A stretch of DNA of 12,377 nt. Origin: a virus. Its lineage: Duplodnaviria > Heunggongvirae > Uroviricota > Caudoviricetes. Numbering within the stretch: position 1 is the first letter of the stretch; the number at the start of each line of letters is the position of its first letter. Location: the IMG/VR virus record IMGVR_UViG_3300037307_000441; one strand, given 5' to 3'. The notes below the pieces were generated by a model that was given only the letters and a program-made list of their open reading frames with translations, had not been told where the DNA came from and ran no database searches. A program made the position numbers and the translations under genes. Shown in pieces: positions 7,487-11,222 of this stretch.

Positions 7487-8101
7487 ATGATACCTACTTT
7501 AGATTCAATTATTAAAATATCTGGAATACATCCCTCAAGGGTATTTAATGTATACCTATTTGGTTCAAGGGTTTATGGAACTTCTGATCTCAACTCGGAT
7601 TGGGATGTTATTATGATTGCAAATAATCATGCCGAATCAACTGAAATTCGTAGAGGTATTTTTAATATTCATGTTTATACCCCGGATAAATTTAGAAAAG
7701 ATTTAGATTGGCATCGCATCAATAATTTGGAATGTATTTATGCCCCTGATTGGGCTAAGCTTAAAGAAGCCATAAAATTCGACGACTTCAAGATTCATAA
7801 AAATAAATTACGACACGCTATTTCTCACATTAGTTCAAATTCTTGGGTTAAGTGTAGAAAAAAAATGGAGGTCGAAAATGAATATTATATTGGTATTAAG
7901 TCACTATTTCATTCAATTAGAATTCCTATGTTTGCTACACAAATAGTAGAATTTGGAAAGATAAGGGATTTTGAGTGTGCGAATTTTGTGTGGGATAAAT
8001 TAAAGAAAAATCATTTGACATGGGGAGAGTTGGATAGAGAATTTAGACCATTATTAAATTCGACTATGACACAATTCAGAAAATTAGTACCAAAAATTTA
8101 A
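7487..8101 (+). CDS. Pol-beta-superfamily nucleotidyltransferase, RlaP-like
   Basis: YLFGSRVYGTSDLNSDWDV (GS...DxD); NIHVYTPDKF...NNLECIYAP and KSLFHSIRI...IVEFGKI follow the RlaP/PF10127-type pattern. Confidence 0.75.
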   Translation: MIPTLDSIIKISGIHPSRVFNVYLFGSRVYGTSDLNSDWDVIMIANNHAESTEIRRGIFNIHVYTPDKFRKDLDWHRINNLECIYAPDWAKLKEAIKFDDFKIHKNKLRHAISHISSNSWVKCRKKMEVENEYYIGIKSLFHSIRIPMFATQIVEFGKIRDFECANFVWDKLKKNHLTWGELDREFRPLLNSTMTQFRKLVPKI

Positions 8102-9129: not shown

Positions 9130-9401
9130 AAAAGAATATTAGATTAGAAATCAATATTATGACCAATGGTTTTTTTGATGAAAAATTTGAAATAAATGAA
9201 ATCAAAATGATTAACCCAAGACATATGAATATAAAAATAACTAAAGAAATAAAAGATATAATATTCAAATATGTAATGGAATTTAAAATAAGTAGTCTAA
9301 ATTCTAAATTAGAAGAAACTAAGAATGCATTCGCTTCGATAGAAAATTTGGTTGGTAAATCAGTAGTCAGAGATTCAAAAATTGATAATATATTTAAATA
9401 A
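9087..9401 (+). CDS. Hypothetical protein with a C-terminal RDSKIDNI motif (start uncertain: TTG 9087 or ATG 9159)
   Basis: Open frame ending VVRDSKIDNIFK; the same octapeptide occurs in the 10232..10555 product. Confidence 0.65.
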   Translation: MVYRKGVRANEFILKKNIRLEINIMTNGFFDEKFEINEIKMINPRHMNIKITKEIKDIIFKYVMEFKISSLNSKLEETKNAFASIENLVGKSVVRDSKIDNIFK

Positions 9402-9433: not shown

Positions 9434-10237
9434 ATGGCATTAATTAAAAAATTCGAATCACTATCAATTGACACAACTATAGAACACTGTAAAGACGTTA
9501 TTGAGACTTTATCTGATTTCGAAGATGATGTTGAAATTAAAAATTATGCCATAGGATATATATATTCGGATAGGGTAGAACAAAATCCAACAACAGAAAG
9601 GGATAAAAAAGGTATAAAATTTAATTTATTCTTAAAGAAAGAATTCAAATCAATAACAGGTAAAGAATCTTTTGATGATCAAATATTTTTACTACAAAAA
9701 TCTAAATACCTTTACTCTAAAATACGTAGTTACTGTGATGAAATAAAAATAGATGTAAGAACAGGATACGTTACATTTATTTTACAATTTGAAAATACTG
9801 ATGAATCAATAAAAAATAAAGCTAAATTAAATAGGGTTTATAAAGGATTGGGAGAAGCTCTTAAGGATTATGATAGGTTTAAAACTATTTATCTATCATC
9901 TGAAGAGCAATTAACTAAAGCTAATAATGATTATTATAAAGATTGTTTAAATATATTAAGATCAATTAATAAAGGTTTAGAAAAGAAAAAGGAATTCACA
10001 CATTTCAGATTTTCAGTTGATATGTCAGAGGAAAATGGTATTATTACTTTAAAACCAAAGCAATTCAGGTATAAAGATGGTTATAGTTGGAAGACAGTAA
10101 GATATAATTCTGAGTTGGCAAAAAATGTTGTTAGATGTTTACAACATAACTTAGAATCAGGGTATATCTATAATGTTAGTCGTGGTGATATAAAGTATGA
10201 GGAAAAAGATACCGAACTAAAGATTATAATATTATAA
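9434..10237 (+). CDS. Hypothetical protein with a MALIKKFES leader; possible internal head protein
   Basis: 267-aa ORF with its own AATATATAG motif and a short (I/L)KKFES leader. Confidence 0.75.
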   Translation: MALIKKFESLSIDTTIEHCKDVIETLSDFEDDVEIKNYAIGYIYSDRVEQNPTTERDKKGIKFNLFLKKEFKSITGKESFDDQIFLLQKSKYLYSKIRSYCDEIKIDVRTGYVTFILQFENTDESIKNKAKLNRVYKGLGEALKDYDRFKTIYLSSEEQLTKANNDYYKDCLNILRSINKGLEKKKEFTHFRFSVDMSEENGIITLKPKQFRYKDGYSWKTVRYNSELAKNVVRCLQHNLESGYIYNVSRGDIKYEEKDTELKIIIL

Positions 10238-10555
10238 TCTTGATTGTGATAATCCAGTATCATCCGGGTCATATTTAAAATCTAAGTAAAATAATTCACC
10301 TCTTGGCATTTCTTTATAATAATCAGGATGTTCTTCTGGTTTCATTTCTTTATATTCTTTTCCTTCTATAATATTATCAATTTTACTATCACGATTTATA
10401 GCATTTACTTCTGCTTTAATTTCATCAGTAGCAAATCCTACTTTACCAAAAGGATCAACAGATACTAAATCCATTCCGATTGTTTTTGATGCAACTTTCA
10501 TTACCATTGGAAACAATGAATTAAAATCAGTTTCTTCCCACTTTTTATTTTTCAT
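10232..10555 (-). CDS. Mini-protein resembling a fragment of T4 gp23-type major capsid protein (Gol region) with a ~45-aa insertion
   Basis: LFPMVMKVASKTIGMDLVSVDPF...MPRGELFYLDFKY aligns with gp23 VMGMVRRAIPNLIAFDICGVQPM-NSPTGQVFALRAVY (gp23 sequence from memory). Confidence 0.6.
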   Translation of the reverse strand: MKNKKWEETDFNSLFPMVMKVASKTIGMDLVSVDPFGKVGFATDEIKAEVNAINRDSKIDNIIEGKEYKEMKPEEHPDYYKEMPRGELFYLDFKYDPDDTGLSQSRL

Positions 10556-10736
10556 TTTTAAATATTATTTTTCTATAATATGAAAGAAGCTTCCGATGTT
10601 CTTTGAATTCATCATCATCGGAAGCTTTGTGACCTTTAGAAATAGCTAAAACAATTTCTAATTCCATCTTAATAATTTGACTTATTAAATATTCTTTATC
10701 TACCTTGTCCTCTATAATTTCTTTCTTTTTTTTCAT
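10545..10736 (-). CDS. Hypothetical protein (probable start ATG 10736, or a later ATG near 10667; the track's TTG start lies inside the upstream gene)
   Basis: Open frame MKKKKEIIEDKVDKEYLISQIIKMELEIVLAISKGHK...; its stop overlaps the start of the next gene. Confidence 0.55.
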   Translation of the reverse strand: MKKKKEIIEDKVDKEYLISQIIKMELEIVLAISKGHKASDDDEFKEHRKLLSYYRKIIFKNEK

Positions 10737-10827
10737 GTTTATTATAAGCCTTTTTATATTTACCGCTTCTTCTTTTACCAAAACTTACTTTGTTGCTGGA
10801 TGTAGATCCCCCTTTAGCTTTTGCCAT
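10696..10827 (-). CDS. Small basic protein (43 aa) ending in YRGQGR
   Basis: Not in the track. Hand translation: MAKAKGGSTSSNKVSFGKRRSGKYKKAYNKHEKKERNYRGQGR*. A C-terminal YRGQG(R/K) is a motif I recognise from small basic proteins of T4-like phages. First gene behind AATATATAC. Confidence 0.8.
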   Translation of the reverse strand: MAKAKGGSTSSNKVSFGKRRSGKYKKAYNKHEKKERNYRGQGR

Positions 10828-10866: not shown

Positions 10867-10875
10867 GTATATATT
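10867..10875 (-). promoter_or_regulatory. Putative late promoter AATATATAC
   Basis: In the divergent intergenic region; the 8-mer ends 40 nt before ATG 10827. Confidence 0.5.
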
Positions 10876-10925: not shown

Positions 10926-11222
10926 ATGGCAACAATCCAAGGATTAAAAATCAATGAGGCTGAATATGAATTAGAAAATGGTGAAAAAGCTAAATTAGCC
11001 GTTCTGCTTTATGCTGGAGAAGAGGACCCAAAACCAATATTAGATTGGGCAGTCGCCAACTATACAGAAGGTAGTGGTGGTAAATATTATGAATTAATTG
11101 ATGCTGAATTAAATTGTCCTTGGGTTAGAGTTATTCTAAGTAATATTAACGACATGAAACAAATTACTTGGGCGGAAGCCATGAGAGAAATAAAACTTAA
11201 TAAATTATTAGATATAAAATAG
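10926..11222 (+). CDS. Hypothetical protein with a C-terminal REIKLNKLL motif
   Basis: 98-aa ORF directly behind the promoter, 2 nt before kptA. Confidence 0.75.
   Translation: MATIQGLKINEAEYELENGEKAKLAVLLYAGEEDPKPILDWAVANYTEGSGGKYYELIDAELNCPWVRVILSNINDMKQITWAEAMREIKLNKLLDIK

Follow-up and report, generated by a model that had tools for sequence, protein, structure and literature searches.

The 12,377-nucleotide stretch of viral DNA analysed here (the window), which originates from a freshwater metagenome, carries on its minus strand a gene (10232-10555, start ATG at 10555) whose 107-residue product, P0001, is a mini-copy, extended by an inserted helix, of the first ~135 residues of the huge phage's T4-like major capsid protein (MCP). 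The open reading frame and its translation, the homologs, the dN/dS ratio and the match to an MCP profile identify it as a real gene that is maintained by selection. Other genes in the window encode a Tpt1/KptA phosphotransferase, nucleotidyltransferases and a peptidase-like protein.

Homology to the major capsid protein

The reference MCPs, including an alignment and an HMM of 41 such proteins, were those of related genomes of the Mahaphage clade and not the window phage's own. In a six-frame search of the window the HMM of the 41 Mahaphage-type MCPs matched solely the ORF of the mini-gene (E 4.3e-7), in two pieces which place MCP positions 90-112 on residues 13-35 of P0001 and positions 116-137 on residues 84-105. 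A BLASTP comparison of P0001 with one Mahaphage MCP yielded 13 identities in 23 positions (E 2e-7). Using hhalign, the profile of the mini-copy family was matched to one MCP with a probability of 99.3% (E 3.9e-20) and to the alignment of 41 MCPs with a probability of 99.6% (E 1.5e-24), in both cases with a clean insert of 46 residues. Against the MCP of this phage group the split alignment is far above chance. According to hhalign the homology spans MCP residues ~7-132, and nothing beyond the first ~135 MCP residues has a counterpart in P0001.

The mini-copy contains the conserved N-terminal block of gp23-type MCPs (LLPxAxKxAxxTIGxDLVxVxP ... LxYxDFxY). Residues 13-35 (SLFPMVMKVASKTIGMDLVSVDP; 10451-10519, minus strand) are the equivalent of the MCP N-arm helix and first strand, as indicated by BLASTP, hhalign and an AF2 model, and are aligned to residues ~90-116 of T4 gp23. 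Residues 83-95 (MPRGELFYLDFKY; 10271-10309, minus strand) correspond to the MCP stretch GPKxDLLYIDFQY based on hhalign and the second HMM domain. In the MCP this stretch directly adjoins the first segment, and contiguous second matches were detected in the MCP ORFs of five genomes.

The family was located by tblastn in the 634-kb and 642-kb genomes of two uncultured phages. Both are members of the Mahaphage clade, whose hosts are predicted to be Bacteroidetes (PMC7162821). In the genome LR745206 the family profile recovered the small gene with an E of 5.5e-58 and, with an E of 1.8e-14, the N-terminus of a 560-aa ORF, where a second match for the last segment directly adjoins the first. The 560-aa ORF is matched over its full length by the MCP profile A3 (E 7.4e-300). 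In other phages its counterparts, which adjoin a T4-type prohead protease, were scored as Gp23/phrog_138 MCPs.

The first-pass annotation had proposed a free-standing mini-paralog of a capsid protein stretch, and a relation to the most conserved N-terminal stretch of gp23-family capsid proteins is borne out by hhalign, BLASTP and the MCP HMM; the profile match to this family is significant, reaching the 99.6% probability (E 1.5e-24) given above. It had also held that a protein of 107 aa cannot form a capsid. The full HK97 fold with its P domain and A domain (~450-600 aa) is indeed absent, the AF2 model of P0001 comprising two helices only. Since the protein matches only about the first 135 MCP residues and lacks the bulk of the capsid fold, it is unable to build a shell. 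P0001 alone gave no match in sequence searches of Pfam, PHROGs or the PDB, and a feature search of the ESM Atlas returned matches at chance level (scores ~0.9, fewer than 170 shared features).

Family size, selection and genomic distribution

The 90%-identity collection contains 56 homologs of the mini-copy, and an exhaustive search recovered 165 clusters at 50% identity, nearly all with a length of 80-190 aa. The family is large and undescribed. No description of a small MCP mini-copy was found in the literature on huge phages and capsid paralogs, and in the literature on the T4 head the full-length gp24 is the only gp23 paralog described.

The members follow a common pattern composed of an optional N-terminal KW... 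extension, the block LLPIAMKVAAxTIGxDLVSVxP, a helical stretch with NRDxKIDSIxExKEY and EDHPDY, and finally PxGxLFYLDxxY, in some members followed by a basic tail. The propeptide-like KW... segment, which aligned to the MCP propeptide, occurs in 38 of 84 family members, and the short form encoded in the window has lost most of it. A conserved protease site (H-x-x-N-E) in this part was considered and dropped, being present in just 10 of the 38 long members.

Comparison of the window gene with its three closest relatives (Nei-Gojobori) gave a dN/dS of 0.08-0.16 at a dS of 0.6-1.2. The gene is under strong purifying selection, and these values remove the option of a decaying remnant with a dN/dS near 1, which the first-pass annotation had considered.

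The number of mini-paralogs per genome, a count proposed in the same annotation, came out as one full-length mini-copy (145-178 aa) beside one MCP (560-601 aa) in each of six large genomes, namely five IMG/VR contigs of 175-476 kb and LR745206. When four of these genomes were searched in reverse with the MCP profile, no second full-length MCP paralog appeared. A 735-kb genome and the Lak phages gave MCP-type matches and no full-length mini-copy, which indicates that the family is confined to a part of the clade.

In most genomes the mini-copy lies ~100 kb or more from the MCP gene (G003: 165.8 kb versus 62.1 kb). Most loci show the order 319-aa protein, 103-aa protein, mini-copy, small ORF, T5orf172, small ORFs and SbcC-like nuclease. 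The 103-aa protein, which is acidic and starts with MKYLKKYNEN (L019:9530-9841 and equivalents), is conserved directly 5' of the mini-copy in ten loci, and its gene is preceded by the upstream motif described below; its leader recalls the T4-like targeting leaders described for the window. The T5orf172/MUG113 gene is located downstream of the mini-copy in nine loci (L002, L008, L014, L016, L017, L019-L022). Locus L023 has the gene order protease, MCP, HNH endonuclease and mini-copy, the latter thus being two genes after the MCP with the HNH gene (L023:8734-9837) in between.

The homing-endonuclease-like neighbours in these two contexts (T5orf172 in nine loci, HNH in L023) may be taken to indicate that the gene is a non-functional by-product, which arose when the 5' end of the MCP gene was partially duplicated via a homing endonuclease and which has been carried passively ever since. 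However, the dN/dS of 0.08-0.16, the retention of the motifs and the 46-residue insert in all 165 divergent clusters and the conservation of start and operon leave hardly any probability for this explanation, and the data on selection and conservation effectively refute it.

Transcription unit and upstream motif

The mini-gene is preceded on the same strand by a 63-aa ORF (10545-10736, minus strand), the stop of which overlaps the ATG of the mini-gene by 11 nt. Based on this overlap, translational coupling of the two genes is likely. In the relatives L115-L117 the 63-aa gene was likewise called 5' of the mini-gene. The first ORF of the unit encodes a very basic protein of 43 aa (MAKAKGGSTSSNKVSFGKRRSGKYKK...; 10696-10827, minus strand) that is conserved in L001, L116 and L117, and the order of the three genes (43-aa, 63-aa, mini-gene) is conserved in close relatives from other samples. 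The composition of the extremely basic 43-aa ORF recalls the basic tails of long members of the mini-copy family.

At a distance of 40 nt 5' of this unit the motif AATATATAC was detected (10867-10875, minus strand), which by comparison with the MCP and prohead-protease genes of relatives is a candidate late-type promoter. In several relatives motifs of the TATATATA[GC] type are found ~30-48 nt 5' of the MCP and protease genes, and the related AATATATA[GC] precedes many other genes, among them the mini-copy unit of the window and of relatives. Both forms may belong to one phage-specific promoter class in which the leaders are very short. The motif fits a co-regulation of the mini-copy with the head genes but was also found before non-structural genes, so that a late timing is no more than a possibility. 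Either AATATATA[GC] or TATATATA[GC] was noted 12-48 nt before start codons in L019, L017, L021, L022, L023, L098 and L099 and at 10867-10875 of the window.

The inserted helix and the RDxKIDxI tag

The insert absent from the MCP comprises 46 residues (37-82; 10310-10447, minus strand) and is predicted to consist of a long helix (44-64) followed by the conserved motif EDHPDY, as derived from the hhalign gap and the AF2 model. This model of P0001 is moderately confident (overall pLDDT 67), with the highest values (88-90) in the insert helix, and predicts a further helix at residues 15-27 and no strands. The AF2 model of the MCP, calculated from a shallow alignment, has a helix at 91-102 and is, with a mean pLDDT of 51, too poor to use.

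Pattern search and alignment place the motif RDSKIDNI at residues 55-62 (10370-10393, minus strand), that is, inside the insert as the first-pass annotation had stated. Across the family N54, R55, K58 and I59 are nearly invariant. The motif is an internal copy of what is otherwise a C-terminal tag: the identical RDSKIDNI ends two residues from the stop of an unrelated 80-aa ORF (9159-9401) at 9369-9392 on the plus strand, and a second window site of the form R[DN]xKIDxI[LIF] is located at 11184-11210 on the same strand. A search of five genomes with the back-translated pattern R[DN]xKIDxI resulted in 18 matches compared to none for the reversed control. Nineteen in-frame instances were inspected, two of them in the window and the others in related genomes (loci L097, L100-L114). 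In 15 of these the tag lies 2-7 residues ahead of the stop codon, the proteins being unrelated and 70-581 aa long; the mini-copies of the window and of L109 are among the internal instances. R[DN]xKIDxI is thus mainly a C-terminal tag in these huge phages. Looser forms were also observed (REIKLNKLLDIK, REFKLNEILK, RNQKINSVLK).

The possibility that the K-I-D codons (AAAATTGA) form a signal at the DNA level was rejected due to synonymous variation and the in-frame position of the motif at C-termini. Arginine is encoded by AGA, CGT or CGA and isoleucine by ATT, ATA or ATC; given this synonymous variation the constraint acts on the protein.

Some of the tagged proteins are encoded within ~6-16 kb of the MCP, and two of all the tagged proteins are partial MCP look-alikes. 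A further ORF in G003 (L113:1158-1997, minus strand) combines a homolog of the nucleotidyltransferase encoded at 7487-8101 of the window with a 77-residue N-terminal piece ending in VRNIKIDKI, which suggests the fusion of a tag-ended ORF with the enzyme.

Reuse of other capsid protein pieces

One of the tagged proteins, with 249 aa and the ending QRDIKIDNILDG (L107:1734-2480, minus strand; G003 69912-70661), is partially paralogous to the C-terminal half of the MCP (hhalign probability 94.4%, E 8.9e-8); its gene is situated ~6 kb downstream of the MCP gene. A 258-aa protein (L122:200-976, plus strand; G003 75553-76329) combines a FIDFEE strand with a tag-like helix (NRELAIDAIIEDK) and a region similar to MCP residues 447-540 (probability 78%); the 258-aa and 249-aa proteins are unrelated by BLASTP. 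Furthermore, a 170-aa protein (L121:297-809, minus strand) copies the Gly/Ala/Thr-rich MCP linker GMGAVV.AQPS.LAG.TIG...GSGDV and ends in a basic tail. Together with a cluster of ORFs that match the insert only, these three proteins indicate that pieces of the MCP and the insert helix are reused as modules in these phages. The cluster was observed on the contig of L024 (G009 44162-48955), where four or five adjacent ORFs lie in tandem, each matching the insert module only; one 251-aa ORF contains a full copy plus an extra insert.

One conceivable, though rather doubtful, purpose of such modules would be a capsid-docking system in which the small proteins copying the MCP and the RDxKIDxI tag serve as address labels by which proteins are loaded into the giant head or anchored there.

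Relation to T4 gp23 and the Gol region

The first-pass annotation had derived the split match from T4 gp23. It holds against the Mahaphage MCP (E 1.5e-24, 46-residue gap), whereas the similarity to the T4 protein itself is weaker. With hhalign the family reached a probability of 73% (E 3e-5) against T4 gp23, covering only T4 residues 85-121 at 21% identity and placing P16-V21 of P0001 opposite P93-M98, and a pairwise BLASTP comparison of P0001 with T4 gp23 found nothing. In a profile search of the PDB T4 gp23 ranked second (E 0.33). The Pfam family Gp23 (PF07068) was matched weakly by 32 of 84 members at E values up to 1 (best E 3.9e-4); eight members examined singly scored 11.8-16 bits, all below the gathering cut-off of 24.4 bits. 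The phrog_138 family (major head protein) was also matched by 32 of the 84 members (best E 3.5e-7). The matches to both profiles fall within the first ~90 profile positions, and in one long member the second segment, PxGxLFYLDFKY, aligned to Pfam Gp23 positions 31-60. Judging from these alignments, the homology is anchored in the phage group's own MCP rather than in T4.

The Gol stretch of T4 gp23 presumably covers about residues 93-122, with 13 critical residues in a core of 20. Gol is described as a 29-residue region and the most conserved part of gp23, which binds domains II-III of EF-Tu and licenses its cleavage by Lit (PMC3014915), and capsid proteins are known to act as immune triggers (PMC9712102). 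P0001, which is small, conserved and single-copy, keeps exactly the stretch aligned to T4 gp23 85-121 and might therefore be an anti-defence decoy or sponge whose MCP epitope soaks up Lit-like or CapRel-like sensors, or a translation modulator binding to EF-Tu. However, an abortive-infection sensor should be triggered and not blocked by a copy of its trigger epitope, unless the copy was produced early and in excess; there is no sign of early expression, and the unit is preceded by the motif type of the MCP and protease genes. Many members furthermore retain a propeptide-like part and a basic tail, neither of which has any bearing on a Gol-type epitope, and the identity to T4 over the aligned stretch is only 21%. 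We know of no Lit/Gol system in Bacteroidota. The host of these phages is predicted to belong to this phylum (PMC7162821). Taking these points into account, a role as decoy or translation modulator seems improbable; an immune decoy of this kind, if true, would represent a new counter-defence principle.

A presumed role in head assembly

Among the three options named in the first-pass annotation (decoy, translation modulator, capsid-assembly regulator) the circumstantial evidence favours the last. We tentatively propose, with a probability of roughly 0.4, that the mini-copy is a head-assembly or head-size accessory, or a head-internal protein, which mimics the N-terminal segment of the MCP. The protein retains the N-arm helix and the first two strand segments of the MCP, preceded by a remnant of the propeptide, and the helical insert of 46 residues with its RDxKIDxI lies between the two strand segments. 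As it keeps only the N-terminal segment of the MCP, one would expect it to share the partner of this segment in the prohead or to compete for it. It may dock there in the assembling prohead, the partner being the scaffolding core, the protease-scaffold, portal-proximal sites or a neighbouring MCP subunit, and the inserted helix would provide the docking motif which many other proteins of these phages carry as C-terminal tag.

In T4 the N-terminus of gp23 up to L106 is disordered and, before expansion, directed towards the inside of the head, presumably in contact with the gp22 scaffolding core; it contains the portal-anchoring M98 as well as the sites of the head-length mutations A94V and G97S (PMC9546572). 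This presumed contact of the T4 segment with the core, together with the propeptide-like part in almost half of the family, is the reason for favouring the accessory role. Regulation of capsid assembly is furthermore favoured over the other two options by the upstream motif, the presence of the tag near the MCP and the orientation of the T4 equivalent towards the scaffold and its link to head length.

The location of most loci outside the head module, beside small ORFs, T5orf172 and the SbcC-like nuclease, counts against this proposal. Comparison with hhalign gave no similarity between the family and T4 gp67 or gp68 (probability 0.7% and 0.06%, respectively), and the cognate protease-scaffold protein did not match the family. 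The head scaffolding family phrog_172 was matched by 2 of 84 members (best: residues 84-120 of P0008, E 8.6e-4).

Huge capsids commonly require auxiliary proteins, and the mini-copy could alternatively be a decoration or cement protein which adds its strand segments outside the expanded MCP lattice where N-arms and linkers meet and which, once bound, would stabilise the very large shell. In T4 the equivalent region is externalised on expansion, when it takes part in intercapsomer contacts and the Soc binding site (PMC9546572), and the poor order of the two strand segments in the AF2 monomer may fit a folding upon binding. Searches of Pfam, PHROGs and the PDB, however, revealed no similarity in fold or sequence to known decoration proteins, and the propeptide-like part of many members suggests an interior location prior to cleavage, so that we consider this explanation unlikely. 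The probability remaining after the accessory, decoy, decoration and by-product readings falls to something else.

Phages with genomes of 300-700 kb have very large heads, and almost none of these phages is cultured. The mini-copy and the shared tag offer a concrete, testable handle on assembly or protein loading in giant capsids. Whatever the role of the mini-copy, its family of 165 clusters and the tag are now open to annotation in phage genomes from metagenomes.

Comparison with known systems

The block shared with the N-terminal region of T4 gp23, including Gol, consists of a helix, D-[LI]-x-x-V-x-P and a strand at the start of the mature capsid protein. Unlike the 521-aa capsid protein the mini-copy is free-standing and interrupted by the helix of 46 residues; the identity is ~21%, and the predicted host phylum is a different one. 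Similar to the T4 vertex protein gp24, the mini-copy is a second genome copy derived from the major capsid gene. However, gp24 has the full-length HK97 fold and forms pentamers, whereas the mini-copy covers only approximately the first 135 MCP residues.

The small size, the proposed site in the prohead interior and the proposed use of a short targeting motif are reminiscent of T4 gp67, gp68 and the capsid-targeted internal proteins, and many mini-copy members resemble gp68 in having an acidic body and a basic tail, although homology to gp67 and gp68 is not detectable (hhalign probability <1%). The T4 targeting sequence is N-terminal and cleaved, whereas the motif shared in the mini-copy phages is C-terminal or internal.

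Small proteins or C-terminal peptides that dock on an HK97-fold shell or its scaffold are represented by CpmB of SaPI, Sid of P4 and the cargo-loading peptides of encapsulins. The likeness to these would be one of analogy only, with no relation in sequence, and the mini-copy is encoded by the phage and not by a satellite. Within these bounds, the address-label system proposed above would be the phage counterpart of the encapsulin cargo-loading peptides.
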